Below, piece after piece: positions 30,369 to 49,351 of a stretch of DNA of 64,000 nucleotides; the stretch's first letter is position 1, and each line of letters begins with the position of its first letter. The stretch is from positions 5,187 to 69,186 of the forward strand of contig CAYFWU010000002.1 in the NCBI GenBank assembly GCA_964347025.1. The letters are read 5' to 3'. Source of the stretch: an uncultured archaeon. GTDB taxonomy: Archaea > Aenigmatarchaeota > Aenigmatarchaeia > QMZP01 > QMZT01. A program made the translations under genes and the position numbers. The notes under the pieces are model-generated. The model was not told the origin of the DNA. It ran no database searches and saw nothing but the letters and a program-made list of their open reading frames with translations.

Positions 30369-32879
30369 TTATTTCTCCTTACCCAAACTTCTCATTATCT
30401 TGTTATACAACTTTATTATTTTTATGGTCTCCTCGTAAAGCTCCTCTTTCTTCTTATCCGGTATCTTGTCATAAAGGAATCTTATTTCGGAATAGATCTC
30501 ACTCGCTCCCTTGGAGTCCCTTCTCTTCAGAGCCTCCTCACCATCATATATCAGTTTTCTGAGTTTATCAAAGGTTTTGAGATCCTCCTTGGTAAACTTA
30601 ACTTTCTCCTTTGGCTTTTCCTTGACCTCCTTCAATTCCAACTCTATCTTTTCCTTTCTCGCCTCTGGCTCAATCTTTTTCAATTCCTTTTCTGCCCTCT
30701 CTCCGAGGGCATCCTCCATTTTCATTCCTGTCAGCCCCTCAACTATTCTTATGGCGTCCTTTATGGTAAGTACAAGTAATGTAACGGGAACTTCCTCTTT
30801 TCCATACTCTATCTCGGAAATACGTATTGAAAAGTGCGTTATCAGATCGGCAAGGTCTTTCTTTAATTTCTTCCTCCTGACAATTTCATTCAACTCAATG
30901 TAGGTGAATTTACGTCTCACCTCGAAAATCTTTGCAAAGAAGTTCCTCATAACCTTAGCGAATTCAGCTGATATCCTTCGGACGGGTTTCTTTCCAATCT
31001 CAAGCTGTATCATGTGAAGTCTTCGAAGGGTTGTGACACCCAGAAGCTGTACGTCAGTTAATATTGGTTTCTTCCTCCTTCTGTATGCCAAAGCAAGCAA
31101 ATACCAACCCCTGTAGAGCAGTATGGATGCCAGGGAGAGCGAAATTATAACGATCAGGTATTCACCCATAAGAAAACCGCAATCCTGGAAACAAGTGAAT
31201 ATCTCGTCTTTCTCGCATACACCGTCCCCGCATTTGGCCGGTATAACTATTTCACAGGGCGGGCAGGGTCCGCCACAGTCTATCCCGTCCTCGCAGATGA
31301 TTGTACCGTCTACCATTCTGTGGCAATTCTTAAGCTTATCGCTGCAGGTGGGACATGGCGGACAGGGTCCTCCACAATCCACAAGTATTTCACAAGATCC
31401 GTGGTGGCAATTCTGTACCTCGTCATTGCAGCTTGGCTCCGGTACGTACGTACAAGGTCTCATTTCAGATGGTTTGTCGAAGGTAGTCCCGCATTCGTTC
31501 TCATCCCAGCATTTCCTCGTCTGTATCTCATAAACAGGACATACGGACCACTCGGAACACCTCCAGTTCTCTATGCATACAGGCGGGGCAGCGGTAGGTG
31601 GAACTCCTCCGCTGGGTGGCGGCTCTATCGGAACATCTTTGACTATTAAGGTCCAGTTATGATAATCTGTCAGCAGACCATCTGATACTACCACGGTCAC
31701 GTTGTGTGTCCCGGCCGAGTCATAGCTTGCATAAAACACATAGCTGTCATTGATCTGACCTGATAATTCTGCTCCATTGAAGTACCATTGTGTCGAGGGC
31801 GTGGTTCCGTCTATATCTTCCTTGGTTATCCAGAAAAGTTGGGACTGCCCCTCACTGATTTCAATGGTGTAATTTTCAGGGTACCATGAAGTTATGTTGG
31901 GCGGGTGGTTAACCGCGACCACAGAGAAACTTATAACCTCCCAATCCCAGCAGATGGTATCCGATACCGAGATGTTTATCGTATAGGTTCCGTTATAGGT
32001 CTCGTTAACAAAGAAATTGATTATGCCTGTTATGGGGCTTATGTTGAAGAATGTTGAATTGTCGTAGAACGTGAGATTTGACCATGCCGGTATGACATCA
32101 TTATCGCTTGCGTTAACATCATAAAAATAGGTCTCGTTTATTATCGCTGTCTGCGCCCCTATCACATCCATAGCAGGACAATCGTTAATGTCCAGAATTG
32201 TGAATCTTACGGACTGCCAGTCCATGAGATCGTATGGATCCTTAACCCATATTATAACATCATGCACACCCACATCCATCTGGGTTGGGGTGAAATCTAT
32301 ATCCCCTGTGTCAGGGTCTATATCGAAAAACGTTGCTGTATCCCCGAAAGTTAACGTGTCGTTATCAGGGTCCGATGCGGTCACGGTGTAAGTGAAATGA
32401 TCACTCTGGTTTATCTCAAAGTCCGGTATAGGGTCGAGGATTGGAGCATAATTTTTCGGTATTACATTGAACTCCACAAATTCAGAATCCTCTTCAAGAC
32501 CACAGGTCCCATACAGCGTTATCCATACCCAGTGTACCCCGCTGTCATTCTCATTGGGGGTGAAGGAAATAATACCCGTCGTCCCATTGATTTCAAAAAG
32601 ATAAGTGTTATCGGTGAAGTAAGCACTCGTTTCGTTTCCTGTGTAGTTTACATCATAGAAATAAGGGTCCTCAACATACGCTGTCTGATTGCCTATGGGA
32701 ACGAGCTGGGCATTGGGATACGCGGTACAGGTATCAACGTAGCCTATCGCCTCTGTTGTAACCTTTGCTTCCATTCTCATAATATAAACCAAAACCTGAA
32801 GCATGAAAACAACTATAAAAATCACAATCAAGATCGCTATCACATTGTTTGAAACCTCTCTCATGCTAAACCCAAACAT
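30369..32879 (-). CDS. Bitopic receptor-like surface protein: Ig/cadherin-like repeats, Cys-rich DCGGPCPPC modules, a TM, and a ~260-aa K/E-rich cytoplasmic tail
   Basis: 836 aa. N-terminal anchor VIAILIVIFIVVFML; domain boundaries DINDCP and AVNHPPN; Cys modules LVDCGGPCPPCPTC and GIDCGGPCPPC; a second TM YLIVIISLSLASILLY followed by RRRKK and a long charged tail. Confidence 0.75.
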   Translation of the reverse strand: MFGFSMREVSNNVIAILIVIFIVVFMLQVLVYIMRMEAKVTTEAIGYVDTCTAYPNAQLVPIGNQTAYVEDPYFYDVNYTGNETSAYFTDNTYLFEINGTTGIISFTPNENDSGVHWVWITLYGTCGLEEDSEFVEFNVIPKNYAPILDPIPDFEINQSDHFTYTVTASDPDNDTLTFGDTATFFDIDPDTGDIDFTPTQMDVGVHDVIIWVKDPYDLMDWQSVRFTILDINDCPAMDVIGAQTAIINETYFYDVNASDNDVIPAWSNLTFYDNSTFFNISPITGIINFFVNETYNGTYTINISVSDTICWDWEVISFSVVAVNHPPNITSWYPENYTIEISEGQSQLFWITKEDIDGTTPSTQWYFNGAELSGQINDSYVFYASYDSAGTHNVTVVVSDGLLTDYHNWTLIVKDVPIEPPPSGGVPPTAAPPVCIENWRCSEWSVCPVYEIQTRKCWDENECGTTFDKPSEMRPCTYVPEPSCNDEVQNCHHGSCEILVDCGGPCPPCPTCSDKLKNCHRMVDGTIICEDGIDCGGPCPPCEIVIPAKCGDGVCEKDEIFTCFQDCGFLMGEYLIVIISLSLASILLYRGWYLLALAYRRRKKPILTDVQLLGVTTLRRLHMIQLEIGKKPVRRISAEFAKVMRNFFAKIFEVRRKFTYIELNEIVRRKKLKKDLADLITHFSIRISEIEYGKEEVPVTLLVLTIKDAIRIVEGLTGMKMEDALGERAEKELKKIEPEARKEKIELELKEVKEKPKEKVKFTKEDLKTFDKLRKLIYDGEEALKRRDSKGASEIYSEIRFLYDKIPDKKKEELYEETIKIIKLYNKIMRSLGKEK

Positions 32880-33291
32880 TGAGGTAAACTACCTGAAGCT
32901 TACCTGTATAGTTACCGATTTCCACATCCGTCGGAACTTCACAGCTGACTGATACGTTTTTCGATTCGCTGGGATCAAGAATGAAGTTGTTTTCCGAAAC
33001 ATAGACCCATTTTGATAAATCACCAAATGTTTTTATCTGTATCATATGTGGTCTGTCATCATTATTGTCGATTATTATCTTTCTTGTGGCCAGACCTCCT
33101 TTTCTGACCTTACCAAAGTATATAGCATCCGTATCCGTATTTATCCCTATCATCTTTCCTCCAACCACCTTTATGTGCATATCAACCTCTTCTGTCGAAA
33201 AGATAACAAAGTTCTCAAACCACAAATAAACGAAGGAAACAGCAATTATAACAACAGCGACAACAGCCAAAAGTTTGACCCCTCTTTTCAA
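32866..33291 (-). CDS. N-terminally anchored single Ig-like (PapD/ASH-like) domain protein (hypothetical)
   Basis: 141 aa. MKRGVKLLAVVAVVIIAVSFVYLWF, then IYFGKVRKGGLATRKIIIDNNDD...FILDPSESKNVSVSCEVP...GNYTGKLQV, a beta-sandwich pattern. Confidence 0.55.
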   Translation of the reverse strand: MKRGVKLLAVVAVVIIAVSFVYLWFENFVIFSTEEVDMHIKVVGGKMIGINTDTDAIYFGKVRKGGLATRKIIIDNNDDRPHMIQIKTFGDLSKWVYVSENNFILDPSESKNVSVSCEVPTDVEIGNYTGKLQVVYLNVWV

Positions 33292-33340
33292 GATACCACC
33301 AATATTTAAATTTGGTCAAAAAGAGTTAAATGCTTTCCAA

Positions 33341-34546
33341 TTAAGACAACTTTTTCTGTATAAACTTCTTCCTTCTTCTCCTCAGGGTTAAAACCGCCAT
33401 AATAGCGAATATTATTATCAGTATTATCACAGCGATCCACATGGGGTTTTTCACGATAAAGTCCAGGAATGACCACTCTTCCTCCACAACCTCCAACGTG
33501 AAGTCCATGGTATCGGTTCCGTTCAGGTAATAGAGCGTCGCTGTCCCCTGATATTCCCCTGGCCCCATCGCCTTCGAGGTGTCCCAGAAGTTGACGAAGT
33601 CTGTCTTTTTCCACGGATAGAGGGTTGAACTTGCACTCTGCGAACCTCCCGAATAACCATCTTTTTTAACATTAATGGAAACGTATGCGTTTTCCATTTT
33701 CTGACTCCAATAGCTTATCACAGTGGTTTTTATCGTTCCTATCGTGCCGTTGGTGATCTTTTCTGAGGTTACATTCAGTATCTTCGCGCTGGGCGAACCC
33801 ACTCTGAAGTCCTCGGAAGTGAACGTGCTGAAACCATCATAATCAATTGTCGCGTTTGCCAGGTACTCACCAGGCTCAACACTAGCCAGCCATTCAGCCT
33901 TAAATTTGGTCCACACCGAATGTTCCATGGATTCGCTGTTGGTTTTGACAAAGGCTATTTTATTTCTACCCTGATCGTAAATATCAATCGTTCCTTGTGC
34001 ATTTTCTATGGTTTGATTCCCTCTGTTTATTGCATCTATCGTGAATTTAACTATCTCGTTCACCTCTCCGCTTTCAACAGTTAACTCCGCCTCCACATAC
34101 TTGCCGGGGTACGCGAGGTGAATTATCAGGTCTGCTCCGACCCGCACCCTTCCTCCCACACCGGTCCCTCCGCTTCCGTCTGACCCGGTAACCACTTGGC
34201 CTGCCCAGATCCAGAGTCTGTGTCTCCCCGGTTTTTCCAGTTTTTCAGGCAACTGAACAACAACATCAGTACATTTAGTTCCGGTTGGCGTGGCCTTTGG
34301 ACCCAGTACAAAGCGTTTCTCGCTTATGGTCACGTATTCAGTCAGGTTTCCCTCTGCGGTCATCTCTACTTCGAAGTAACCTTGGAGAGAATTAGAGACG
34401 CAAACGTTTCTTTCAACCCTCATATTTGGCTGAAAATCGTACTCGCCCAACCCCCCTGGGGATATGCCTAGGGCAAATACGTTTGTTGGGAATATAAAAA
34501 TAAATATAAAAATAATTAAGAGTGTTTTTTTCACCATACTACTCAC
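33341..34546 (-). CDS. Secreted three-domain Ig/CARDB-like protein with a C-terminal TM anchor (paralogue of 38527-39795)
   Basis: 401 aa. Signal peptide KTLLIIFIFIFIFPTNVFA, LGISPGGLGEYDFQPN, YPGKYVEAELTV..., and the C-terminal TM WIAVIILIIIFAIMAVL followed by RRRRKK. Confidence 0.7.
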   Translation of the reverse strand: MSSMVKKTLLIIFIFIFIFPTNVFALGISPGGLGEYDFQPNMRVERNVCVSNSLQGYFEVEMTAEGNLTEYVTISEKRFVLGPKATPTGTKCTDVVVQLPEKLEKPGRHRLWIWAGQVVTGSDGSGGTGVGGRVRVGADLIIHLAYPGKYVEAELTVESGEVNEIVKFTIDAINRGNQTIENAQGTIDIYDQGRNKIAFVKTNSESMEHSVWTKFKAEWLASVEPGEYLANATIDYDGFSTFTSEDFRVGSPSAKILNVTSEKITNGTIGTIKTTVISYWSQKMENAYVSINVKKDGYSGGSQSASSTLYPWKKTDFVNFWDTSKAMGPGEYQGTATLYYLNGTDTMDFTLEVVEEEWSFLDFIVKNPMWIAVIILIIIFAIMAVLTLRRRRKKFIQKKLS

Positions 34547-34561
34547 GTTACTGAAATTTAC

Positions 34562-35299
34562 TTAACAGTTGTTTGATCCCTCAACTGTCACTGTCGTTTG
34601 CTTTCCACCCTCTGAAGTATCTGACGGCAAACCCAGCATAAAGTGAACTCTCATTTCGTCCGTACACTGAGATGCGTTCAGCTGAGTACAGATTGTGGTT
34701 GCTGATGTTCCGACATCTGTCCATTCCTCTGTGAGCGTTCCGACACAGGAATCCGGATAACCGGTTCCGGCACAGGTCGTACTTCCCCAGGTGCTCTCAT
34801 TCTGCTCTCCTGACATCTTGAATTCCGGTGTTTGTGCTGATCCTCCTATCCATGATTGCGGCGTGGCTGCTGCATAAAGCTTTATGCATGTCGATTCGTC
34901 GTTACCGTCGTTCTCAATTACGAATGGATCGGCGCAATTTCCTGAATCGTCGTTACCGCTTTTTCCATATGTACAATTGCCTTCTGTGTTGTTCCCCTCG
35001 CTTCCATTGTTGAAAAAACCTGCGTTGTTACGATCTCCCCACTGGTTTGACTCGTTGGAGTAAATTCGGTGTATAGTAGCTGTGTTGGTGTAACCGCTTC
35101 CGAAGAGAGTCTCGTTTCTAATCAGGGTTATGGATACCTCGCTCGTTATAGTCACGTTGGATTTTCCCGTTCCTGAGGTCGCAAATCCTGTATACTGCAA
35201 AACAGGAATCAGTGTTATCGTGTTCGCCAGTCCTACTATGGAAACCACTATGGCCACTATTAACAAACCTGCAAGCAAATTGTTTGATATTTCAGCCAT
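34562..35299 (-). CDS. Secreted Thr/Ser/Gly/Asn-rich protein with 8 Cys; candidate fibre or minor subunit (hypothetical)
   Basis: 245 aa. The N-terminus MAEISNNLLAGLLIVAIVVSIVG is homologous to the N-terminus of the adjacent 77-aa ORF. Confidence 0.6.
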   Translation of the reverse strand: MAEISNNLLAGLLIVAIVVSIVGLANTITLIPVLQYTGFATSGTGKSNVTITSEVSITLIRNETLFGSGYTNTATIHRIYSNESNQWGDRNNAGFFNNGSEGNNTEGNCTYGKSGNDDSGNCADPFVIENDGNDESTCIKLYAAATPQSWIGGSAQTPEFKMSGEQNESTWGSTTCAGTGYPDSCVGTLTEEWTDVGTSATTICTQLNASQCTDEMRVHFMLGLPSDTSEGGKQTTVTVEGSNNC

Positions 35300-35342
35300 A
35301 TCTATTTTTCCTCCTATTTATATCTTTATCAAAAGAGCATGA

Positions 35343-35576
35343 CTACTCTGTTTCACTCCCGCCAAGAACCTCAACTCCAACCACACCGCCGCTAAAAGTG
35401 GCAGGACTGGAGCTTTCCGGGTTCAGGATAGTTACACCCACGACCCCTGAACCTTCTGGTGGAGGGGCAACAGGAGCTACATAGAGATTGCTCAATATGG
35501 CATAGGTTCCCATTATCGATACTAAGACCAAGACCATAACGAGAACCAGCAATAATCTATTATCTATTTTAGCCAT
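35343..35576 (-). CDS. Small secreted/anchored protein, candidate major subunit (hypothetical)
   Basis: The track ORF uses a TTG at 35585; I prefer the ATG at 35576, giving 77 aa: MAKIDNRLLLVLVMVLVLVSIMGTYAILSNLYVAPVAPPPEGSGVVGVTILNPESSSPATFSGGVVGVEVLGGSETE. It is preceded by the duplicated 29-bp element. Confidence 0.55.
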   Translation of the reverse strand: MAKIDNRLLLVLVMVLVLVSIMGTYAILSNLYVAPVAPPPEGSGVVGVTILNPESSSPATFSGGVVGVEVLGGSETE

Positions 35577-35577
35577 C

Positions 35578-35635
35578 AATACCAACCCTCAAGCTTTATA
35601 TGAATAAATACCAACCCTCAAGCTTTATATGAATA
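35578..35635. repeat. Perfect tandem duplication, 2 x 29 bp (AATACCAACCCTCAAGCTTTATATGAATA)
   Basis: Copies at 35578-35606 and 35607-35635 are identical by direct reading. On the coding (minus) strand each copy reads TATTCATATAAAGCTTGAGGGTTGGTATT, with a TATA-like ATATAAA and an SD-like GAGGG. The proximal copy ends 1 nt before the ATG. Confidence 0.9.
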
Positions 35636-35686
35636 TATTTGTCTTAACTTATTTAAATTTATACTACACCAACCATTTATGGTTAT

Positions 35687-38005
35687 TTAAACCCTTTCCA
35701 CACCAAGATTTACCTTATCCCCCGTGGCCCCTTTATTCTCTATCGCCAGCCTGCTGTAACCCCTGCCTACGCTCAAAGTATCGTTGATATCCACATTATC
35801 ATAACTCAGCACTATTTTCAAAGGGTATTTGTTCCCCAGGCCATAGGAAAACGTGGGTGAGATTTGTGACAGGAATTCGCCCTTCTCTATCATATCAATT
35901 CTCTGGTTTACCTGCCTCCAGTCCCCCCTGGAAAAAACGAGGAATACCACAGAGTTTTGAAACCTCTGATCTGTTCGCATCTCATAGTTTCCTGAGCCTG
36001 TGGATGCATGTATTGATAACGGATTGTCAGGGGAAACAACGAGTGAGGTGAGGATGTTATTCATGTAGGACGCCAGGTAGTAATGAGGAGGATTAACATC
36101 CGTATACGGGCTTATCTGACCAAGCTGCGTGAAGGTTTTTTCTCCTGCTCCGGGGATGTATATGCTGGCTGAATCCCACGTGTTGTTAAACAAAATCTTT
36201 ACCTGAAAATTCAGGGAAACAACGGCTATCTTTTTGAAATCATGATTCCTTCTGTTCTCGTCATCAGTTGCCGTGACATTTACCAGCCAGAGTCCTGCGG
36301 CATTTCCCGGAAGCGTGTAGTTGTACTCGTATATGTAACCGTTGGCTATTTCCGATACATTCGTCATATTCGCGTTATTCACTATCGTAGCCCCCAAATT
36401 ATTTTTTATGACAATGGTTGCATTTGCCAGATAATCCCTTCCGTTACCGCTGGTCACACTCGCTCTCGTCCTGACCATCCTGTTGGGTTTGAAAACGCTC
36501 GTCTCAACAAGCGCCCGGGTGTAAGTTTTGACCTGAACAACCGGCGGGCCAAGACCCTGGAGATGCACGATCAATAACTTGCTGGTCGTCAGATTCTCGG
36601 AGGTCTGGTTCGAGGGGTAGCCTGTTTTGTTGACATCCACCGTATAATTGGTGTAGAAGGATTTCCCTGAGGGTGTCTGGTTGTACTCGCTGAGGACCTG
36701 TCTTGGTATGTAGCCGGAAGAGTTGGTCTGACCGCTGAACCATGAATAGTTATAGGTATCCGTTACGCTTACATTCGCGTTTGCAACAGGGGTTTCAGAC
36801 GTGTCCCTGACCTGTATGTCCAGATACCACTTGACCCAGATTACCGCACTTGAGCTTACGGAAACATCATTCTTATCGAAGGTGGAGTTTATGAAGTAGT
36901 TGTTTGAGGAGCCTGTCACGACAATCTGATAATCCGAGGACGCGCTTATGACGGTGTCAATCACGTAGTTGTTGTCGGTGTTTGAAAAGCTCACACCATC
37001 ATCGTCATTCGAGTGTATATAAGATCCTGTAAGGTTGTTGTTTGAACTAGCACTTATCGCTATCCCATCGACATCGTTTGCATAACTCTCTATACCTGTC
37101 ATAACATTGCTGGAGGAGCTGTCCATGTGAAGACCGTTCAGTGTATTGTCGGAAATAATAGCATTATCAACCCTGTTACCGTTGGAGGAGGATTCAAAAT
37201 AGATTCCGTAGCCCGTGTTGAGAGAGCTGTTCACACCGGTTATATTATTGTTCGTTGACTGGGAAAATCGAATGCCTGTGTTCCCGTTCGATTTGACATT
37301 GCCTCCCTCTATCCTGTTTCCAGATGACGATCCCAAATAAATTCCCCTTACCTGGTTTGACGTTACGTTGCTCTCATAGATAACGTTACCAGTGGTGGTA
37401 ACGAAATTAACGCCGTCCTGGGTGTTTAAACCTACGTATGTGTATTCGATCCTGCTGTTGTTCGAGGCCGAGAACCAGAACCCGTGATTCGTATTGTTCG
37501 AGACGTTTCCATGGCTGAAGTTGTTACCCAGGGAGGAAAGAAAAACCACACCATAATCATTATTCAGATAAACCGTGTTGTTGGTGAAGTTGTTGTAATT
37601 AGAGGAGGAGAATGCGTTTATACCTCTGTTTGTAATGGATGTGATGAGGTTGTTGTATATCTTGTCATCGGTTGAAGAGGACATATAAATTCCGTACGTC
37701 CAGTCGGATATCTCACAGTTACGGACAGTCACGTTATCGTAGTTTACAATGAATACCCCGTAAGTGTCACCACCATCAACACCGTCTATCCTATAACCCT
37801 GGCAATCCAGGATCACATCATTCGCCTGAACATCCATGCATGTCGAGTTCGTGGAATTCCAGATGTCCTGTGTTAAATTGTAGGTCTCTCCTTGTGTGTC
37901 CAGAACCGAACAGTTATCTATATTGACCGATAAAACAGGTTGTGCATTTAATAACGCGAAGATGATGGTCATGAATGCCGCTATCCAAACACCCTTCCCC
38001 CACAT
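35687..38005 (-). CDS. Secreted right-handed parallel beta-helix (NosD/PbH1-like) repeat protein
   Basis: 772 aa. Signal VWIAAFMTIIFALLNAQPVLS. It has many ~22-residue repeats of the type N.I..N...GI.l..S..N.i..N, for example VRNCEISDWTYGIYMSSSTDDKIYNN. Sequon-rich. Confidence 0.7.
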   Translation of the reverse strand: MWGKGVWIAAFMTIIFALLNAQPVLSVNIDNCSVLDTQGETYNLTQDIWNSTNSTCMDVQANDVILDCQGYRIDGVDGGDTYGVFIVNYDNVTVRNCEISDWTYGIYMSSSTDDKIYNNLITSITNRGINAFSSSNYNNFTNNTVYLNNDYGVVFLSSLGNNFSHGNVSNNTNHGFWFSASNNSRIEYTYVGLNTQDGVNFVTTTGNVIYESNVTSNQVRGIYLGSSSGNRIEGGNVKSNGNTGIRFSQSTNNNITGVNSSLNTGYGIYFESSSNGNRVDNAIISDNTLNGLHMDSSSSNVMTGIESYANDVDGIAISASSNNNLTGSYIHSNDDDGVSFSNTDNNYVIDTVISASSDYQIVVTGSSNNYFINSTFDKNDVSVSSSAVIWVKWYLDIQVRDTSETPVANANVSVTDTYNYSWFSGQTNSSGYIPRQVLSEYNQTPSGKSFYTNYTVDVNKTGYPSNQTSENLTTSKLLIVHLQGLGPPVVQVKTYTRALVETSVFKPNRMVRTRASVTSGNGRDYLANATIVIKNNLGATIVNNANMTNVSEIANGYIYEYNYTLPGNAAGLWLVNVTATDDENRRNHDFKKIAVVSLNFQVKILFNNTWDSASIYIPGAGEKTFTQLGQISPYTDVNPPHYYLASYMNNILTSLVVSPDNPLSIHASTGSGNYEMRTDQRFQNSVVFLVFSRGDWRQVNQRIDMIEKGEFLSQISPTFSYGLGNKYPLKIVLSYDNVDINDTLSVGRGYSRLAIENKGATGDKVNLGVERV

Positions 38006-41795: not shown

Positions 41796-41873
41796 GATAT
41801 CCCCCTCCCTCTAAAACACGCATTCCTTCCAATTATAATCTTGGTGGCTAAGAAATAAAAAACGACTCTGAAG

Positions 41874-42464
41874 TTAAAACTTACATCCCGTCAGACTTTC
41901 AATCCACTCAAGGGATTTGACACCTGTGTGTATCTGGTTGTTGTAAACGATCGAAGGTATCTGCTGTATTCCAAGCTGCTGGCATGCCTGCAGGTTCGCT
42001 CCTGTACAGTCCACATAGATCTTATTCGCGTAATTCCCTATCGTTAGCAACTGCTGAACTGTGTTGGGCTCGCTCTTTTGACCGAATACGATCAGGCCCT
42101 TCGAACTCAGACATTCCGCGAAATCCTTTTCCCTCTCCAACCTAACGAGGGTTTCCGAAACATCCATGATGTTCTCGGTCAGGAACTTCCCGTCCTTGGT
42201 CGCATAAAGCTCCCTGATAACATCACCGCTAGCGAGCTTCAGCCTGATCAGTATCTTGTAAATATGTCCTTCATCCTTCACGCTCAGAACCTCCACTTCG
42301 CCCTCCGTCAACATCTTATAAACACTCTCCACGCTGTCCAGAACCTGTTTCTGAGAGCCCGCAGTGATCGTATTCTGAAGGAACATGAAAGCAAGAATGA
42401 TCACAAGAACAACAATTACACCAATGTAAACCAGATCTTTTTTCATTGGTTTTCTCGAAGCCAT
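41874..42464 (-). CDS. Membrane-anchored extracytoplasmic thioredoxin-fold protein lacking the CxxC active site
   Basis: I prefer the start MASRKPMKKDLVYIGVIVVLVIILAFMF at 42464; the track ORF extends to 42578 through F/L-rich junk. The C-terminal FAECL..GLIVFGQKSEPNTVQQ....IYVDC......ACQQLGIQQIPSIV.N...H.G...LEWIESLTGC matches the VKOR-associated Trx-like domain pattern, but SEPN replaces the redox CxxC. Confidence 0.6.
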   Translation of the reverse strand: MASRKPMKKDLVYIGVIVVLVIILAFMFLQNTITAGSQKQVLDSVESVYKMLTEGEVEVLSVKDEGHIYKILIRLKLASGDVIRELYATKDGKFLTENIMDVSETLVRLEREKDFAECLSSKGLIVFGQKSEPNTVQQLLTIGNYANKIYVDCTGANLQACQQLGIQQIPSIVYNNQIHTGVKSLEWIESLTGCKF

Positions 42465-42479
42465 ACAATAAAAATGTAG

Positions 42480-42643
42480 ACATAATTTAAAAAAGTTAAA
42501 TAAAAAGAAAAACAAAAAGGGACTAAAGGAGCTTTTACTTCCTCGTCCCTTCTTGTATCTTTCCTGTTTTGGAAGCAAGCGACGGAGCAGAACGCGAGTA
42601 AGCGCAGCTCCTTTCTGCTTAAGCTCTTTCTTGAAAAGAGCTT
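42480..42643 (-). terminator. Hairpin at the stop codon plus a downstream oligo-T tract (candidate terminator of the fibre gene)
   Basis: A 9-bp stem AAGCTCTTT/AAAGAGCTT (42621-42643) overlaps the TAA of the 1399-aa ORF. On the minus strand, 42486-42519 reads as T-runs (ttttgtttttctttttatttaactttttt). Confidence 0.3.
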
Positions 42644-45600
42644 ATCCTAACTGGATGATCACGTTGCCGCTGCTCGAGCTTATTGTCAGATTCCCGTCGC
42701 TGTCCACCGTGAAGTTCGCGTAGTCGACGTTGTCCGTATGCGTTAACACTAACTGAGAACCACTGTTGTCTAGGACCTCAAGTATTGCGTCCGGAGTTGA
42801 GTCTCCTATACCGACTTCACCGGTATTTAATATGTATATTTTCGCAGCATTATTTGTGATTAACCGCAAATTATGGTTAGTTGTGGTGCCAAAAAGCGCT
42901 TCGTTTACCCTTGCGCTGATTTTGGCTGTTACACCGTCTGTGCGGTTTACTTCAAGAACTGCATTAGCACTGCTATCTGCTATTTCCAAATCTACATTAG
43001 GATTCGACGTCCCGATGCCGACTTGATCACTTGAACCATCAACATACAATGTATCAGCTATGTTGGTAACTCCATCGCTGTCGCTGTCTATGGTTACATT
43101 ATCTGTCGTGGTCGCTCCTCTAGTCGTAACAGTCTGCAACGTATCGCTCTCGCTTCCCAATACATTGCTCAGACAGTTTCCTCCCTGTATGCAAACATCG
43201 GTCGTTGCATTGATGTAATTTGTTGAGTTTATGTTACCTACAACATCGAGTTGTTGCTGTGGATCCGTCGTCCCGATGCCGACCTTGCCGTTTGGTACCC
43301 AAATATCTCCTAAACCAGCAGTGTCGGTGGCGAATTGTATAGCATCTACTTCTGAACTGCCATCAGATGCACCGATTGAAAATGGACTGCCTGCACCATG
43401 CGGCACATCCAAATAACCATAACGTCCAGTAGCTGCCCTTGTTAGTCTGAAAGCCCCATCAGAAGTATGATTAGTGAATATCTCAAAGATGGTTTGTGGA
43501 ATAGTTGTGTTTATGCCGATGTTGCCGTCTGCATCAATGACCAAATCGCCCCACCTATCATTAGTGAAAAACCTTAACTGGTCATAGGTCTTAGCTCCTA
43601 CATAACCATTTCCGCCAAAAACTGTCATTTCGATTTCCACATCACTTGTACTATCTCGTACTGTTATTCCAGTGTCTCCAGTACTAGTTGCCAAAATGGT
43701 TGTGTATGATTGTCCTGCATCTGTTCCATTCCCAACATGTAGTAACCGATTCGGACTAGCTGTCCCGATTCCGACTTGATCACTTGAACCATCAACATAC
43801 AATGTACCAGATATGTTGGTCAATCCATCGCTGTCGCTGTCTATTGTCACATTGTCAGTAGTGGTCGCTCCTCTAGTCGTAACAGTCTGCAACGTATCTG
43901 ACTCGCTCCCCAATACATTGCTCAGACAGTTTCCTCCCTGTATGCAAACATCGGTCGAAGAGTTTATAGTTCCCGTTGCGTTTATATCACCTTTCACATC
44001 CAGCATATTTTGTGGAGTTTCCGCGTTGATGCCGACCTCACCTGAACTTAATACCGTTAACCTTATTAGATCAGATGTTGCTAATCGTAGTCCCAGATGA
44101 GGGGCAGCCGCTGTCGTGTCACCTATATCCATAAAGCCTCCTTGGACTCTTATTAATGCGAGGTTGCCCGTTTCGTTGACAAAATTTATCACAGGGGCAC
44201 TCGCATTAACATCTATTGATCCCGAATTGACTTCCAAATTTCCTGACACGTAAAGTCTGTTGCCGTCCGTCGTTGTCGAGCCTATGCTGACGTTGCCGCT
44301 CCCGTCAGGTATTATGTATACAGGTCCGTCACCGTTTGTATAGTAGGGGATTTGAATCTTTGGAACTGAAATCCAGGCCGTTTCAATTGTGCTTATATTA
44401 AGAGTATTTTTATTCCGGACCCTGAACTGGTTGCTGAACATCCCATCTGACATAGATGTGACGTTATCGGTGGCGTTTATATTACCAACTACATCCAATT
44501 CCTGCTGCGGGGTCTGCGTCCCAATGCCGACTTGATCACTTGAACCATCAACATACAAGGTATCTGCTATGTTGGTAACTCCATCACTGTCGCTGTCTAT
44601 CGTTAGATTCTGATCAGTTGTTGCTCCCCTGTCTGCTACGCTGTCCAGTGTATCGCTCTCGCTTCCAATACCATCATCCTCTGAACAGTTCCAGTAAGAG
44701 CCACTTGAAACCCATTTCAAAACCTCTCCGTTTGAACAGCTCTGGTTGAGAACAACCGTGTCCGAGCTTATCTCTATACCATTCCCTACATTCACAAGGA
44801 CGTTATCTCCACTCGTTCCCAGACCATCACCGTCATTAATAGCCAACACACCATTCGTATAGCTGATACCAGTCCCTGCAGAACCACTCGAAAGGTTCAC
44901 TCTCGGCTGAGGACCGCCGGGATCCGTGACAGTTATTCCCCAACCTTGCAATACGTCCGTGACATCTCCAGTTCCACCAGAGTCATCATCACTGGCGCAT
45001 ATCCAAGCGCTTTCCGTGTTATTCCACTTCAATACCTCTCCATCCGCGCAGCTCTGGTTCAATACGACTGTATCAGAGCTTATCTGTATACCATTACCCG
45101 TGTTCACAACTACATCATCTATATTGATTCCTAGACCAGACCCTGCAATAACTTCTACATTGTCGCCGCTGGTTTGTAAACCACTTCCCGCGTTCACAGA
45201 AAGGACACCCTGCGAAAAGGCCAGACCATCACCAGCGGAAAAGCTCGAAAGGTTCACTCTCGGCTGAGGACCACCAGAGTTCGTAACGTTTATTCCCCAA
45301 CCTTCTAACACAGCCGTGATATCACCGCCGACAACGCTCAGACAGTTTCCTCCCTGTACACAAACATCAGTTGTCGCATTGATGTAATTTGTTGAGTTTA
45401 TGTTGCCATGAACTTCTGTGTTGAGATTGTAGCTCGGGCTTCCTATCATTAACTGGTTCGCAGCGGTGGTGACAGCTTCCCTACCAAGGGCGACGCTGTT
45501 ATCATGGATGGCATCTGCCTCTGCTCCCAGTGCTGTTGCGTATTGTCCTGTCGCGTTTGCTGAGTCTCCCAATGCTGTCGCGGCAGTTGCTGTGGCTCTT

Positions 45601-46841
45601 GTATAGTCTCCTATTGATGTTGCACTATTCCCTGTTGCTTGTGCAAGTTCCCCTATTGCTGTTGCGTGGTCTACTGTTGCGTCTGAGTTGAGTCCCACTG
45701 CCGTTGAATAATCTCCTGATGCATTTGCTGAGTACCCTAGCGCTACTGCGTTTGATCCTGTTGCTTGCGCTCCATAACCCAAAGCTGCTGCGCTTACACC
45801 TGTTGCATCTGCATCGGCTCCCAAAACTACTGCGAACTTTCCTGCGGCGTTTGCATTCATTCCTATCGCTATTCCCTTTTCCTTTGGTGCATCTGAATAA
45901 CCACCCAGTGTTATTGAGTATTCACCTGTCGCATTTGCAGTATTTCCAATAGCAACTGTAGTGCCGTTTGTTGCTTGTGCATTGGTCCCTATTGCCAATG
46001 AATTGCTCCCTGTTGCTGATGCACTGTCTCCTATAAAGAAGAAGGTAGGCATGGTGATGTTCCCGCTGATGTTCATGCTCGTATTAACGTCAATAAAGGT
46101 TCCGTAATCAGTTATCGAGCTGTTGCCGAGCGTGAACTGACCTGTCCATTTTGGTATTATATTGGCTCCTCCGTTTCCTGTGACGTTACCTCCTGAGTTC
46201 TCATCGAGTGCACAATCCCAATCGTTCGCAGATGTCCTCTTAAGTATTTCACCATCAGAACACGTCAATCCATCAGGCATTATCTCATCATAGAAGATCA
46301 CGCTTCCTGTAGCATTGACATCACCAACTACATCCAGCTCCTGCTGCGGAGTTGCTGTTCCTATTCCAACTCTGTCTGATGTGTCATTAATGTACAGGAT
46401 TCCGGATAAGTTAACAGCATTTTCCACTCCCGAGGCAACTTCAAATCGGTAAGTTGGTGTACTCGTCCCTATTCCAACCCTCCCATTCAGCGAATCCACG
46501 TACAAAGTATCGGTGCTAACTGTGAAGTTCTGGGTGACGCTCAGGTTGTTCGGGAATACGAAGTATCCCGATTCGAACGTCCCTGACGATATCCTTGAAG
46601 CCGCATGACCCGGATCAGCCGGGGAGGCCTGAACTGTTGTCACCAGGGAGGTGAGACACGCGACCAAAATGATCGATAGAGCTACCGCTAAACAAGGTCG
46701 CGCTCTGGGCTTCGCCATTTCACACAAACCGGCTAACTCAGAGCCAATTTGTCTGGAGTTACTAACGAAGGTATATGCGTTCCTTAACGAACGCAGGGCC
46801 ACCTCCAGTATGGCGAAGATTACGGTTGCAAACCAGTTCAT
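42642..46841 (-). CDS. Secreted giant fibre protein: YadA-head-like 14-residue beta-roll, fibre-shaft-like repeats, and repeated (V)GIGT..P...L(D/E)V modules
   Basis: 1399 aa. The likely real start is 46718 (MAKPRARPCLAVALSIILVACLTSLVTTVQA|SP, a signal peptide). Residues ~271-470 form 13-14 exact 14-residue repeats (SLAIGTNAQATNGT / TVAIGNTANATGEY / ...). There is no C-terminal TM. Confidence 0.8.
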   Translation of the reverse strand: MNWFATVIFAILEVALRSLRNAYTFVSNSRQIGSELAGLCEMAKPRARPCLAVALSIILVACLTSLVTTVQASPADPGHAASRISSGTFESGYFVFPNNLSVTQNFTVSTDTLYVDSLNGRVGIGTSTPTYRFEVASGVENAVNLSGILYINDTSDRVGIGTATPQQELDVVGDVNATGSVIFYDEIMPDGLTCSDGEILKRTSANDWDCALDENSGGNVTGNGGANIIPKWTGQFTLGNSSITDYGTFIDVNTSMNISGNITMPTFFFIGDSASATGSNSLAIGTNAQATNGTTVAIGNTANATGEYSITLGGYSDAPKEKGIAIGMNANAAGKFAVVLGADADATGVSAAALGYGAQATGSNAVALGYSANASGDYSTAVGLNSDATVDHATAIGELAQATGNSATSIGDYTRATATAATALGDSANATGQYATALGAEADAIHDNSVALGREAVTTAANQLMIGSPSYNLNTEVHGNINSTNYINATTDVCVQGGNCLSVVGGDITAVLEGWGINVTNSGGPQPRVNLSSFSAGDGLAFSQGVLSVNAGSGLQTSGDNVEVIAGSGLGINIDDVVVNTGNGIQISSDTVVLNQSCADGEVLKWNNTESAWICASDDDSGGTGDVTDVLQGWGITVTDPGGPQPRVNLSSGSAGTGISYTNGVLAINDGDGLGTSGDNVLVNVGNGIEISSDTVVLNQSCSNGEVLKWVSSGSYWNCSEDDGIGSESDTLDSVADRGATTDQNLTIDSDSDGVTNIADTLYVDGSSDQVGIGTQTPQQELDVVGNINATDNVTSMSDGMFSNQFRVRNKNTLNISTIETAWISVPKIQIPYYTNGDGPVYIIPDGSGNVSIGSTTTDGNRLYVSGNLEVNSGSIDVNASAPVINFVNETGNLALIRVQGGFMDIGDTTAAAPHLGLRLATSDLIRLTVLSSGEVGINAETPQNMLDVKGDINATGTINSSTDVCIQGGNCLSNVLGSESDTLQTVTTRGATTTDNVTIDSDSDGLTNISGTLYVDGSSDQVGIGTASPNRLLHVGNGTDAGQSYTTILATSTGDTGITVRDSTSDVEIEMTVFGGNGYVGAKTYDQLRFFTNDRWGDLVIDADGNIGINTTIPQTIFEIFTNHTSDGAFRLTRAATGRYGYLDVPHGAGSPFSIGASDGSSEVDAIQFATDTAGLGDIWVPNGKVGIGTTDPQQQLDVVGNINSTNYINATTDVCIQGGNCLSNVLGSESDTLQTVTTRGATTTDNVTIDSDSDGVTNIADTLYVDGSSDQVGIGTSNPNVDLEIADSSANAVLEVNRTDGVTAKISARVNEALFGTTTNHNLRLITNNAAKIYILNTGEVGIGDSTPDAILEVLDNSGSQLVLTHTDNVDYANFTVDSDGNLTISSSSGNVIIQLG

Positions 46842-46887
46842 TTCTCTTCACCTCCCCTTTGTGACTTATTGGTCACCATGATATCAC

Positions 46888-48975
46888 CTAAAAGTCCGAA
46901 TAGTAATGGAAATCATTTTTGAAGTACATATTGCCGGTTGCGGCATCTATGTAACCTTGGACATTACCTCCTGAATCTTTAATTATGAAGTCATCCCCTC
47001 CCGAAGGGTTTAAGCTTTCCGTGTGTATGAACCTGCCTGTCGTTGCAAGGTTTCCGTATTCATCTATGTAGAGAACTGGCGTTCCTCCTGAATTGTGTAT
47101 TATGAAGCTGTTGTCAGGAGGAGAAAGCGAACCCTGATCATACGAATACGAGCCCTTGACATCAACATTCCCGAACTGATCAAACCTTGCGACGAACCCT
47201 GTGCTGTTTTCTACAAAAAGGCAGGGATTTGATGAATCACAGGTAGTGTTCGAGCCACCTTCGGTTATGTTCTCATCGCAGTCATTATCCACGCATAAGT
47301 ATTGCGTCGCCCCTTTCAAGCACTGCGCATCTGTCTGGCAGTCGTACCAGGTTCCCGAGCTGCACCAATCGTTATCACCATCGTTATCCACGTCTTTGTC
47401 CGTGTCTCCACTTGATGCGAAACAATTTCCGCCCTGATCTGCGGGATCATAACAATCCGATGCTACTTCATCCCAGTCATTGTCGAATGGACAACCATCT
47501 GTTGGTATACATAGATCCCAAGTGCCGCAGGTGTTGCAGATACAACCATCCGCGTTGTCGCATGCGCCGCCACCCGCCGTTCCTGCATATTCCGTGTCCT
47601 GCATGCAGTTCCCGGATGTGCATGCAGTTTCTAAATCACAATCTGAAAACCCATTGTTCCTCGTGTAAATACAATCGTTGCTTGTACAGGCTTCGGCACA
47701 ATCGGTGCCTCCGTAACATGTTTGAGAACTTTCCCCTTCTGCATACTCTCCTGCCGGGTCGCAGTGACCTGTAGTAGTACAATCTACCCAAGTGTTAGAG
47801 CTTGAACATACATCATCATCCGCGTTGGAATCAACGTCCGCTGTTCCGGAAAGTGCATAGCACGTATCAGCATCAACGCAGTCGGTCGAAGGATTGCAGC
47901 AGGCGTCTGTTGATGCTGGCGGGTTTTCTATAGAAGCCCCATATAAACCGGTTAGATAATTCTCCCCGCTGTCATCACCACAACATTCCGCAGTGGTTCC
48001 GGCATCGAAAGAGAAACCACGGGTCGGTCCCCAGCAACTCCCTCCCGAACACCCGGTCGCCCCCTCGCTGCAGTCACACCAGTTCTCATCTCCGTCCCAG
48101 CTTACAGTGTAAAGGTTAAGGGGGCCTGAAGTCCCTGAAGTTTCGTTTTCGTAGAGGTTGCAGACAGAGGGCGTATCTCCTCCGGATGCATTGGCAGTTA
48201 CATTCGCGGTGTACTGACCTTCTGTCGGGCAGAACGTGTATCCAAGCGTGTAGTTCCAGCTCTCGTTAATCCAAAATGGACTGGCGTCACATACACCTGT
48301 CTGTTCCCAGTAAGTCATTGTATACGTATCTGTAGTCCCCCCTCCTGATGGGGCTGTAACATTGACCCACATGTCAGCGACATCACAGCAGTGACAGGGA
48401 ACCACATCCGTTCCTGTGCAGTCTGCCCAGTTTTCAGCGTACACTTCCTCTCCCAGAAAAGAGAATTTCAGATAGTGATGACCTGTCTGCAGGATTCGCA
48501 GAACCAGCTTCCCTTTTTCACTGCATTCCCAGTCCCTTGCAATGATCTTTCCGTTGTCTATCCCCTCAGTCCATGTATCGCTTTTACCTTTTCCGGAGAA
48601 ATGCCTCTCCACGCTCGCTAGCTCATCGCCGCAGTAGAGCTGGAGGAACTCGACATTCCTCTGGAAATACGTCTTCTGGTAGGCCTCTATTTCCAGATCT
48701 CCCTTCCCCTTGGTCTCGAACTCTACGATCCACCTCCCCCACACTGTAGGTTTGGAAACGGGATTCAGGATCTTTATGTGTTCGGTTTCGTATTCGAGTT
48801 CGGGTTGCATCTCTCCCTTTGGGAAGATCAGGTTCATGAGCATTTCCCAGATCGTTGTTTGTTCAGCTCTAACCTCGATGGGGAATGCTGATAGGATTAG
48901 ACAGATCGTTATTCCTATTACCAGTATCATTTTCTTATTCATTTCCGCCTCCCAGAGTAATGATTGGAGCTTCAT
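46888..48975 (-). CDS. Secreted cysteine- and aspartate-rich protein (hypothetical)
   Basis: 695 aa. The likely start is 48942 (MNKKMILVIGITICLILSAFPIEVRA), overlapping the regulator stop as ATGAATAA. The centre has dozens of Cys with D-rich stretches (GDTDKDVDNDGDNDWC). The C-terminus has repeats F.I.(N/D)SGG..v.YID..GN. Confidence 0.65.
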   Translation of the reverse strand: MKLQSLLWEAEMNKKMILVIGITICLILSAFPIEVRAEQTTIWEMLMNLIFPKGEMQPELEYETEHIKILNPVSKPTVWGRWIVEFETKGKGDLEIEAYQKTYFQRNVEFLQLYCGDELASVERHFSGKGKSDTWTEGIDNGKIIARDWECSEKGKLVLRILQTGHHYLKFSFLGEEVYAENWADCTGTDVVPCHCCDVADMWVNVTAPSGGGTTDTYTMTYWEQTGVCDASPFWINESWNYTLGYTFCPTEGQYTANVTANASGGDTPSVCNLYENETSGTSGPLNLYTVSWDGDENWCDCSEGATGCSGGSCWGPTRGFSFDAGTTAECCGDDSGENYLTGLYGASIENPPASTDACCNPSTDCVDADTCYALSGTADVDSNADDDVCSSSNTWVDCTTTGHCDPAGEYAEGESSQTCYGGTDCAEACTSNDCIYTRNNGFSDCDLETACTSGNCMQDTEYAGTAGGGACDNADGCICNTCGTWDLCIPTDGCPFDNDWDEVASDCYDPADQGGNCFASSGDTDKDVDNDGDNDWCSSGTWYDCQTDAQCLKGATQYLCVDNDCDENITEGGSNTTCDSSNPCLFVENSTGFVARFDQFGNVDVKGSYSYDQGSLSPPDNSFIIHNSGGTPVLYIDEYGNLATTGRFIHTESLNPSGGDDFIIKDSGGNVQGYIDAATGNMYFKNDFHYYSDF

Positions 48976-49186
48976 TCCTTGGTTCAGCGTTTTCCGTCAG
49001 TGAAAAGAGCTTCGCCTTGCCAACATCCCTTCTCTTAACATGACCCTTCGCTTCAAGAACAGCGAGGTATTTAGAAGCTGTTACACGATGGACATTCGCC
49101 TTTTCGGCTATCTCAAGAATGGTGAGAGAAATATCGGATTTTCTTAATACGTCAATTATCAACTCCTCTAAAAAATCAGGACCCAT
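48935..49186 (-). CDS. Winged-helix transcriptional regulator (first gene of the surface gene block)
   Basis: 83 aa. TILEIAEKANVHRVTASKYLAVLEAKGHVKRRDVGKAKLFSL is an HTH plus wing. Confidence 0.75.
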   Translation of the reverse strand: MGPDFLEELIIDVLRKSDISLTILEIAEKANVHRVTASKYLAVLEAKGHVKRRDVGKAKLFSLTENAEPRNEAPIITLGGGNE

Positions 49187-49213
49187 TTACCCAACCCTTT
49201 GAAGGCGAAAGCC

Positions 49214-49266
49214 TTAGACATCAGTGACTAACATTAATGTCTATTTTTAGACATTAATGACTAACA
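49214..49266. promoter_or_regulatory. Candidate operator: a 12-bp perfect inverted repeat embedded in two 20-bp direct repeats
   Basis: CATTAATGTCTA tttt TAGACATTAATG lies at 49232-49259. TTAGACATCAGTGACTAACA (49214-33) and TTAGACATTAATGACTAACA (49247-66) are 18/20 identical and 33 bp apart. The site sits in the 165-bp divergent region between the wHTH gene and the Dpm1-like GT2 gene. Confidence 0.5.
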
Positions 49267-49351
49267 CCCCATTAATTAATTATTGGTATGAATCCTATAT
49301 ATTTTTTATCTCTATATAACTTATAGTCTGTATCTGGAAAATGGTGTTAGA

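Follow-up and report, generated by a model that had tools for sequence, protein, structure and literature searches.

A surface-protein gene cluster with a core conserved across DPANN archaea and its possible role in the display of variable, often giant, adhesin-like proteins

Gene content of the cluster

A stretch of 64,000 nucleotides from an uncultured archaeon of the Aenigmatarchaeota (positions 5,187 to 69,186 of contig CAYFWU010000002.1, assembly GCA_964347025.1), referred to here as the window, carries a cluster of genes for secreted or membrane-anchored proteins, designated g1 to g13, whose core was found to be conserved across lineages of DPANN archaea. A list of open reading frames (ORFs) placed these 13 genes on the minus strand between 30369 and 49186, with products of 83, 684, 1399, 196, 528, 161, 409, 772, 77, 245, 398, 141 and 836 amino acids from g1 to g13. 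This list agreed with the depositor's gene calls on WVXR01000359.1 (GCA_011773405.1), part of a metagenome-assembled genome named 'Candidatus Aenigmarchaeota archaeon', and both sources confirmed the arrangement of 13 minus-strand genes in two blocks that had been described in an earlier note on this DNA. The gene overlaps given in that note, ATGAATAA at 48935-48942 and 14 nucleotides (nt) each at 40209-40222 and 32866-32879, were present as quoted. The inventory was nevertheless incomplete, as a plus-strand gene lying between the two blocks, gX (38081-38530), had been overlooked; it encodes an N-terminally anchored protein of 149 amino acids and is convergent with g7 and divergent from g8. 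An N-terminal hydrophobic segment was detected in 12 of the 13 minus-strand products by a Kyte-Doolittle scan, as the note had stated, the exception being the winged helix-turn-helix (wHTH) protein g1.

Two groups of genes within this array make up the core. The first, module A, consists of g5, g6 and g7. A secreted protein of 528 amino acids is encoded by g5 (40209-41795) and contains a Cys-rich beta domain, two FN3-like domains and a C-terminal domain that is referred to below as the C-domain; g6 (39734-40222) encodes an N-terminally anchored, FN3-like protein of 161/162 amino acids; and g7 (38527-39795) encodes a protein of 409 amino acids (ORF of 422) with a signal peptide, three immunoglobulin-like (Ig) domains and a C-terminal transmembrane (TM) segment. 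Module B consists of g9/g10, g11, g12 and g13. Both small proteins, g9 (35343-35585; 77 amino acids, ORF of 80) and g10 (34562-35299; 245 amino acids), start with a leader and TM helix, which in g9 are followed by a short tail and in g10 by an [IL]TG motif and a C-domain. The g11 protein (33341-34546; 398 amino acids, ORF of 401), a paralog of g7, has the same layout of signal peptide, three Ig domains and C-terminal TM segment, whereas g12 (32866-33291; 141 amino acids) is N-terminally anchored and has a single Ig domain of the ASH/MSP (PapD-like) type. The last gene, g13 (30369-32879), encodes 836 amino acids comprising the leader and TM segment, Ig/PKD-like repeats, a Cys-rich region, a second TM segment and a Lys/Glu-rich, predicted cytoplasmic tail of ~245 residues. 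The C-terminal TM segments reported for the paralogs with ORFs of 401 and 422 codons, and the second TM segment of g13 (residues 570-588) with the long tail that follows it, were reproduced in the Kyte-Doolittle analysis. Sequence comparison shows that the two modules are paralogous and of matched composition.

Four further genes lie to the left of g13. On the plus strand are genes for a MoxR AAA+ ATPase (27470-28462; Pfam AAA_3, 5e-61), a DUF58 protein (28508-29425; Pfam DUF58, 3e-53) and a VWA protein (29473-30348; Pfam VWA_2, 6e-21). The VWA domain is situated between two TM segments (39-57 and 264-282) and the N terminus is basic, which suggests that this domain is extracytoplasmic. The fourth gene, u1400 (23166-27368, minus strand), encodes 1400 amino acids with cadherin and Big_9 repeats (Pfam), 110 N-x-S/T glycosylation sequons, and TM segments at residues 7-25 and 1361-1379.

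No PilB/FlaI, PilC/FlaJ or prepilin peptidase domain was detected in any sizeable ORF of the window, and the view that the cluster is not recognizable as a type IV filament, archaeosortase-dependent or known S-layer family was upheld. No Pfam or NCBIfam family was found for g2, g4, g5, g6, g9, g10, g11 or gX.

Conservation of the core across DPANN lineages

An alignment-based scan of one genome per GTDB species yielded 79 loci with flanks of up to 10 kb. These loci were labelled as Aenigmatarchaeota, Woesearchaeota, Pacearchaeota, Nanoarchaeia and, in one case, Micrarchaeota; a few were labelled 'Methanosarcinales' or 'bacterium', which we suspect to be binning or labelling errors. A total of 440 homologs of g7 were found, and the best 120 of the 440 were ~400 amino acids in length and 44 to 100% identical. 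Every homolog for which a source was named came from DPANN, and a profile built from divergent members again yielded DPANN-named proteins only. The g7 protein was the most conserved component of the cluster, with 44 to 80% identity across phylum-level lineages, a level comparable to that of the VWA protein (77%, 60% and 55% identity in loci L002, L001 and L006, respectively).

Every protein of the window was then compared with the 79 loci by tblastn. Matches were obtained in all 79 loci for g7/g11 and in 64 for g5, in this case to the C-terminal third of the protein, while g12 matched 42 loci, g6 39, and g10 and g13 30 each. Matches to u1400 were present in 28 loci, to MoxR/VWA in 10 and to DUF58 in 8. 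Of the remaining genes of the array, g8 matched 23 loci, g2 14 (mostly through residues 62-184), gX 12, g3 5, g4 3 and g1 2. The flanking glycosylation genes, encoding GT2 and radical-SAM proteins, matched 0 to 1 of the 79 loci.

Frequencies of gene neighbourhoods were corrected for the length of flank available, giving denominators of 58, 50 or 44 loci. In 54 of 58 loci, a C-domain protein was encoded on the same strand directly upstream of the g7-type gene, and g6 adjoined g7 on its upstream side in 30 of 58. A second g7/g11-type gene occurred within 7 kb downstream in 31 of 50 loci and g12 was present in 29 of 50. Downstream of the core, g13 was found in 25 of 44 loci and a u1400 homolog in 24 of 44, while the MoxR triad was within 10 kb in 14 of 44, a count that is limited by flank length. 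Two arrangements of these downstream genes were apparent. In Aenigmarchaeota, g13 is followed by VWA-DUF58-MoxR on the opposite strand and then by u1400, the triad being tied to g13/u1400, whereas in Woesearchaeota and Pacearchaeota (L043, L053, L079 and L029) the order is g13, u1400 and MoxR on one strand. Linkage of the core to MoxR and u1400 thus persists through rearrangement between both arrangements.

These results indicated that the conserved core consists of module A (g5-g6-g7) and module B (g9/g10-g11-g12-g13), and that co-occurrence in syntenic order among relatives, the test named by the earlier note, was passed by a core rather than by the whole array. It could be argued that the array is a chance gathering of unrelated surface-protein genes, as g1 to g4 are poorly conserved and the array is interrupted by opposite-strand coding and by several candidate promoters. 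However, dozens of species-level genomes from phylum-level DPANN lineages have the core genes in this order, far more than chance would produce, and the paralogous modules match in composition, so that a chance origin is extremely improbable. The existence of a surface-protein system was therefore borne out: it is real and is conserved across DPANN, in Aenigmarchaeota as well as in Woesearchaeota, Pacearchaeota and Nanoarchaeia.

Several features that had been emphasized initially did not belong to this core. The wHTH protein was matched in 2 of the 79 loci, the Cys-rich protein in 14 (one domain only), the fibre-like g3 protein in 5 and the thioredoxin-like protein in 3. The interval proposed as the boundary of the cluster also proved too narrow, as MoxR-DUF58-VWA and u1400 (23166-30348), to its left, are syntenic with the core. 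Because of this synteny, retained in differing lineage arrangements, the description of the system as 'ATP-independent' is doubtful.

The accessory genes had varied distributions. The g8 protein (35687-38005, minus strand; 772 amino acids) is a secreted right-handed beta-helix protein (Pfam Beta_helix, 5e-26; NosD, 6e-24); full-length homologs including the C terminus were present in 11 loci, indicating a semiconserved accessory, and its conserved C-terminal region was unrelated to the other families of the cluster in hidden Markov model (HMM) comparisons. Homologs of gX in the 12 matching loci were mostly found at the same position after g7 and in the same opposite orientation. The secreted g2 protein (46888-48975, minus strand; 684 amino acids) has 45 Cys residues in its ORF of 695 codons, as stated previously, and only residues ~62-184 recur in distant relatives. 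The g3 gene (42642-46841, minus strand) encodes a secreted protein of 1399 amino acids with YadA_head repeats (Pfam, E=7e-24), and the matches in relatives were mostly partial. Head repeats of the YadA type are unusual in an archaeon, and g3 additionally contains several near-identical segments of ~60 amino acids (e.g. SESDTLQTVTTRGATTTDNVTIDSDSDG.TNI..TLYVDGSSDQVGIGT). There was no indication that g3 is held by the g7 and g11 anchors, since it lacks the C-domain that accompanies these anchors everywhere. The g4 protein (41874-42464, minus strand; 196 amino acids) is N-terminally anchored and had no Pfam match; the sole basis for the thioredoxin fold assigned to it was a phmmer match (E=0.075) to a VKOR/thioredoxin domain, so that it can be described as possibly thioredoxin-like. 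The wHTH protein g1 (48935-49186, minus strand; 83 amino acids) matched HTH_11, TrmB and MarR-type families, and the wHTH assignment, like that of the beta-helix, was upheld by Pfam. As whole proteins, g1, g2, g3 and g4 were found in close relatives only, and g1, g3 and g4 are regarded as lineage specific.

Intergenic sequences of the array were inspected visually and by pattern, rather than with promoter and terminator scans designed for bacteria, as the organism is an archaeon. Between g3 and g4, a hairpin with a T-run is followed by a TATA-like box at -27, and the divergent gX/g8 spacer is TATA-rich upstream of g8. Because of these signals and of the opposite-strand gX gene, the array is probably not one operon, and the proposal of a single co-directional unit behind one regulator was not sustained. 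A perfect inverted repeat of 12 nt (CATTAATGTCTA N4 TAGACATTAATG; arms at 49232-49243 and 49248-49259) is located 46 to 73 bp upstream of g1 and is accompanied by a 20-nt direct repeat (49214-49233 and 49247-49266). These repeats constitute a candidate autoregulatory operator for the wHTH protein. In the Aenigmarchaeota loci L005 (1633-1821 and 7747-7920) and L006 (4264-4443), a g1-like wHTH gene is situated directly upstream of a g5 homolog, indicating that a g1-type regulator recurs within the cluster, at a different place.

The left part of the window has housekeeping genes (purine synthesis, PCNA, topoisomerase and RadB). To the right (49352-64000) lies a glycosylation-type island encoding two GT2 proteins, two PMT_2 membrane glycosyltransferases, an NAD-dependent epimerase and five radical-SAM proteins, three with SPASM and two with B12-binding domains. 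The GC content of this island is 0.36 to 0.39, compared to 0.44 to 0.48 in the cluster, and in relatives the island shows no synteny with the cluster. At 1107-2138 (plus strand), a gene for a protein of 343 amino acids had a subthreshold match to TCAD9 (ternary complex associated domain 9), a family known from MoxR-vWA-type conflict systems; its position is unrelated to the cluster. Rfam and tRNA scans of the window gave no matches.

Domains of the core proteins and possible modes of assembly

An AlphaFold2 (AF2) model of g5 had a predicted local distance difference test score (pLDDT) of 88 and consisted of the Cys-rich beta domain, the two FN3-like domains and a C-terminal beta-sandwich at 376-528. 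The latter is the C-domain, a beta-sandwich of ~150 amino acids that also forms the body of g10: the two were related by BLASTP (7e-7) and by hhalign, which aligned g10 to residues 378-524 of g5 with a probability of 99.7% (E=1.4e-25). Alignment of the C-domains gave a terminal pattern of '...VP.DE..G.K..T.T', and in the g5 model the domain was a complete sandwich with a pLDDT of >92 and no strand missing. Neither the C-domain nor the leader had a match among Pfam, NCBIfam or PDB sequences. The g3, g2, g8 and u1400 proteins were also considered as carriers of the C-domain, but none was found to contain it by HMM analysis.

The N-terminal parts of g5 homologs were variable and unrelated, and included LamG and DUF2341 domains, with total lengths ranging from 300 to 8,931 amino acids. 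Many of these proteins, at >3,000 amino acids, outrun the 10-kb flank. The largest, of 8,931 residues, is encoded upstream of g6 and g7 homologs in L083 (1-9428; JGI 3300041085, a 664-kb contig); its gene runs off the locus and represents ~4% of the contig. No C-terminal TM segment was detected in g5 by the Kyte-Doolittle method, and the giant homologs end in the C-domain, not in a hydrophobic segment. Giant homologs from Woesearchaeota begin with a conserved basic motif of ~35 amino acids, M(V)YKKYI.R.GKKFGPYYFKS.R..GKV.SVYLG (L019 from 186, L025 from 4845, L037 from 2436, L070 from 1631 and L029 from 33), which in L019, L025, L037 and L029 is followed by a TM helix and not by a classical signal peptide.

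The g10 family comprised 225 representative clusters at E<=1e-3, all of ~200 to 250 amino acids. Its members have a conserved N-terminal leader, M-x-E-[IV]-S-N-N-x-L plus ~20 hydrophobic residues; the [IL]TG motif is almost invariant, and the proteins also have a 'G..NVT[IV]' strand and the C-domain. A conserved N-V-T sequon is part of the conserved first strand. The same leader was detected in g9 with the g10-family HMM (E=3e-8), in agreement with the claim of a common N terminus in the two small proteins, but it is not limited to these, since g13 also has it (E=3.4e-6) and it is kept in g13 homologs. Short leader-bearing ORFs were recurrent in relatives, with 33 ORFs of <110 amino acids in 59 loci (e.g. 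L082 and L083), and g10-type genes were often tandemly duplicated (L006, L009, L041, L058, L059 and L065-L067). In the window, a tandem duplication of 29 nt (35575-35632; 97% identical) covers the start region of g9, including a Shine-Dalgarno-like GAGGG, and may create alternative g9 starts.

The presence of this leader raised the possibility that g9, g10 and g13 are pilin-like, being assembled into a pilus or pseudopilus by type IV machinery encoded elsewhere, with g7, g11 and g12 as accessory proteins and the g5-type giants as tip adhesins. All three proteins share the conserved leader and ~20 hydrophobic residues, and we take this module to resemble the mature N terminus of archaeal pilins (VSPVIG...-type). 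A helix joined to an Ig domain is likewise the architecture of archaeal pilins and archaellins, and a few homologs have [KR]G or G before the leader (a 69-amino-acid ORF in L082, 'KRGISKN'; L015, 'KGEITN'; L019, 'HHGISNN'). Linkage of MoxR/vWA pairs to some archaeal type IV pilus loci (PMC4858521) was also counted in favour of this explanation. In most members, however, the would-be -1 position is occupied by E, K, D or Q and not by G or A, and the leaders are often only 2 to 3 residues long. No Pfam pilin or archaellin N-terminal domain was matched at E<=0.1, and neither the ORFs of the 64-kb window nor the Pfam annotation of L082 and L083, within 10 kb, included a secretion ATPase, platform or prepilin peptidase, although these may be elsewhere in the genome. 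Furthermore, the C-domain also ends secreted giants that have no adjacent helix, an arrangement unfit for incorporation as a pilin. Overall, we regard assembly of g9, g10 and g13 as a pilus as improbable.

The membrane Ig proteins were examined next to the C-domain proteins with which they are paired. Paralogy of g7 and g11 was supported by BLASTP (E=2e-37), and both have a C-terminal TM helix with a basic tail. An AF2 model of g7, made from an alignment of 24 sequences (pLDDT of 85), started with a signal helix and ended in a TM helix, with three beta-sandwich domains between them (43-131, 150-264 and 269-385). Where domains 1 and 2 meet, a VPYPGKY motif is almost invariant. Pfam searches gave borderline matches of this family to WxLIP, the Ig protein of Gram-positive WxL clusters. 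WxLIP_HBD matched 10 of 24 g7-family members, the best score of 28.9 bits being equal to the gathering score of 28.9 and most scores being below it; WxLIP_PGBD matched 1 of 24, on domain 1, with 20.4 bits versus a gathering score of 27.3. Domains 2 and 3 scored on both CARDB and WxLIP_HBD, and the two WxLIP matches fall in the right domain order. Foldseek was searched with whole-protein AF2 models of g7 and g5 and returned mostly generic Ig and FN3 arrays. The top matches of g7 were ciliary central-apparatus proteins, and a WxLIP-long WxL complex (9i25_C) was matched with E=4.6e-8 and a target TM-score of 0.40, the highest in the list.

The single domain of g12 was related to domain 1 of g7 by hhalign (probability, 95.5%; E=1.3e-8). 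Subthreshold Pfam matches of g12 were to ASH, Cep192_D4, Motile_Sperm and PapD-like families, and a g12 family profile matched the ciliary ASH proteins FAP65 (9e-8) and Hydin (4e-4). This ASH match fits the ciliary Foldseek matches of g7, and placement of g12 and g7 domain 1 in the ASH/MSP/PapD-like group of Ig domains is supported at the level of sequence profiles. The g6 protein was related to the second FN3 region of g5 (residues 284-433; hhalign probability, 98.2%). A paralogous relationship of g6 and g12 was also considered, but neither BLASTP nor hhalign detected homology, g6 being FN3-like and g12 ASH-like.

Membership of g12 and g7 domain 1 in the PapD-like group is one of the points consistent with a chaperone-assisted fibre, in which the C-domain proteins would polymerize by donor-strand exchange, g7, g11 and g12 would act as membrane-bound chaperones, and g5-type proteins would be two-domain tip adhesins. 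A small subunit with a 'G..NVT[IV]' strand and a large protein with the same end domain mirror the major subunit and tip adhesin of chaperone-usher systems; such systems need no ATPase, and the small-subunit genes are often in tandem duplicate. Against this explanation, the C-domain of g5 was modelled as complete, the small subunits would be tethered by the N-terminal TM helix that they retain, no similarity to solved donor-strand subunits was found among PDB sequences and no usher-like pore protein is present. A donor-strand fibre of this kind therefore seems quite unlikely.

A further alternative was that u1400 or g5-type proteins form an S-layer lattice, with g7 and g11 as SlaB-like membrane stalks and MoxR/VWA functioning in envelope assembly. 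The signal segment, C-terminal TM segment and 110 sequons of u1400 are typical features of archaeal S-layer glycoproteins, g7 is conserved at a housekeeping-like level and a glycosylation island adjoins the cluster. Candidate S-layer proteins of Nanobdella are Ig-rich, one being without a TM segment (SlaA-like) and others having a C-terminal TM segment (SlaB-like) (10.1101/2023.10.27.564410), and this likeness was also counted for an S-layer. Lengths of ~300 to 8,931 amino acids and unrelated N-terminal domains among g5 homologs would, however, be unexpected for a lattice protein; g7 has neither a glycosylation sequon nor a coiled-coil stalk, and modules are duplicated within loci. On this evidence, there is a low probability that the cluster encodes an S-layer. 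The N-x-S/T counts of the window proteins were sharply bimodal, with 0 in g4, g6, g7, g9 and gX, compared to 20 in g13, 30 in g5, 31 in g8, 43 in g3 and 110 in u1400.

Proposed function and comparison with known systems

Our tentative reading, which we consider quite possible but far from assured, is that the cluster encodes a tether-and-display system for variable, often giant, adhesin-like proteins on DPANN cells. The membrane Ig proteins g7 and g11, aided by g6 and g12, would bind the C-domain, probably by beta-strand augmentation as in PapD-like/ASH domains and WxLIP, and the docked C-domain would keep a secreted adhesin on a cell without a wall to which it could bind. Docking was proposed because C-domain proteins and g7-type membrane Ig proteins come in one-to-one pairs; because g7 is conserved about as well as the VWA protein while the N termini of C-domain proteins are hypervariable; and because there is no C-terminal anchor on g5 and the C-domain is the last part of its giant homologs. 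Through its tail, g13 may couple the extracellular complex to the cytoplasmic MoxR/DUF58 ATPase pair, whose role would be to build or remodel that complex; g13 is the obvious candidate for such coupling because it combines the leader, Ig repeats, a Cys-rich region and a predicted cytoplasmic tail. The VWA domain, if extracytoplasmic, could provide a metal-dependent contact. Lineage-specific cargo and helpers would be supplied by g1 to g4 and g8, as a regulator, a Cys-rich protein, a YadA-like fibre, a disulfide helper and a beta-helix protein, respectively.

A number of observations weigh against this tether-and-display proposal. The C-domain had no detectable sequence similarity to WxL, Pfam or PDB entries. 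The WxLIP scores of the g7 family were at or below the Pfam gathering scores and similar to those of CARDB, and no WxLIP chain was found among PDB sequences with the g7-family profile; a phmmer search of the same sequences with a family member bearing the WxLIP_HBD match also gave no WxLIP chain. The 9i25_C complex ranked 29th in the Foldseek search, behind generic tandem-Ig proteins. Several giant g5 homologs have an N-terminal TM helix of their own and hence may need no separate anchor. MoxR triads occur in many unrelated contexts, and here the triad was within 10 kb of the core in the 14 of 44 loci mentioned above. Finally, g7, g6, gX, g9 and g4 have zero N-glycosylation sequons and neighbouring proteins have dozens, which could mean that these five proteins have another location or role.

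A more far-reaching version of tether and display would be a DPANN-specific attachment organelle, in which a conserved platform (g7/g11/g6/g12, g9/g10/g13 and a cadherin-like stalk) docks interchangeable giant adhesins that MoxR loads or remodels via the g13 tail, so forming the general host-attachment machinery of Aenigmarchaeota, Woesearchaeota and Pacearchaeota. We consider this extension possible but doubtful.

DPANN archaea account for a substantial part of archaeal diversity, and an attached life on other cells is assumed for most of them. The cluster is a candidate for the means by which these tiny, symbiotic cells, including those of uncultured Aenigmarchaeota, Woesearchaeota and Pacearchaeota, keep adhesins at their surface. 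It provides a defined gene set, with unusually conserved membrane Ig anchors, a new docking-type domain found at the end of hypervariable proteins as long as ~9,000 residues, and a common leader. These genes are named targets for metaproteomics, labelling in cryo-electron tomography and multimer modelling, and they offer a marker for the adhesin repertoire in any DPANN genome. No description of the cluster was found in the open-access literature and bioRxiv, as the earlier note had anticipated, and while absence there is not proof, the cluster is apparently undescribed and its core families are absent from Pfam and NCBIfam.

Parts of the locus could be compared with several known systems. For g3 only, YadA trimeric autotransporter adhesins offer a likeness through their head repeats, but g3 has no YadA anchor domain in Pfam searches, archaea lack an outer membrane and the protein is confined to close relatives. 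The MoxR-DUF58-VWA genes are of the same three families and in the same order as in Bat-type triads, with the VWA domain flanked by TM segments; they differ in being tied, across lineages, to a specific set of DPANN surface proteins. SlaA/SlaB S-layer pairs resemble the core in having a large, secreted, Ig-rich protein and a partner with a C-terminal TM anchor, whereas here the large partner is hypervariable and can be giant, and the anchor is without sequons and without a coiled-coil stalk. In chaperone-usher pili and in archaeal donor-strand filaments (Sulfolobus threads, bundling pili and cannulae), PapD-like/ASH Ig proteins similarly occur beside small beta-sandwich subunits and a large protein with the same end domain, and there is no ATPase of the secretion type. 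Unlike these systems, the cluster lacks an usher, has a membrane-anchored Ig protein and encodes subunits that retain a TM helix; neither sequence nor fold comparisons matched known subunits, and there was no sign that a fold is incomplete.

The closest described system in logic is the WxL/Csc cluster of Lactobacillales and Listeria. Gram-positive WxL clusters encode one Ig-Ig-TM protein, WxLIP, and two partners, one short and one long, that have the same C-terminal domain, and AF2 predicts insertion of a strand or hairpin of WxLIP into WxL (PMC10599100). A WxLIP-long WxL complex is now in the PDB (9i25). As in these clusters, a tandem-Ig membrane protein with a C-terminal TM segment is encoded beside short and long secreted partners with a common C-terminal domain, the long one having variable N-terminal binding domains, and there is a further small anchored protein. 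The short and long partners are represented by g10 and g5, whose shared domain was aligned at 99.7% probability, and the long homologs carry LamG and DUF2341 domains. Differences were also evident. Instead of two Ig domains, g7 has three, and none of its family's WxLIP scores in Pfam exceeds the gathering level; a dual W-x-L motif is absent from the partner domain, which is not a WxL domain, and PF13731 (WxL) was not matched by g5, g10 or 31 g10-family members at E<=0.1. The small partner is tethered to the membrane by a conserved leader, a MoxR-VWA set and a cadherin-like protein are added, and the host is an archaeon without peptidoglycan. As DPANN archaea lack murein, any docking target must differ from the Gram-positive wall. 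With a borderline WxLIP signal, a partner domain other than WxL and no peptidoglycan, membership of the cluster in the WxL/WxLIP class is not established. Nevertheless, these comparisons suggest that the logic of the Gram-positive WxL system, an Ig anchor with short and long partners, exists in wall-less archaea, either by distant homology or by convergence.

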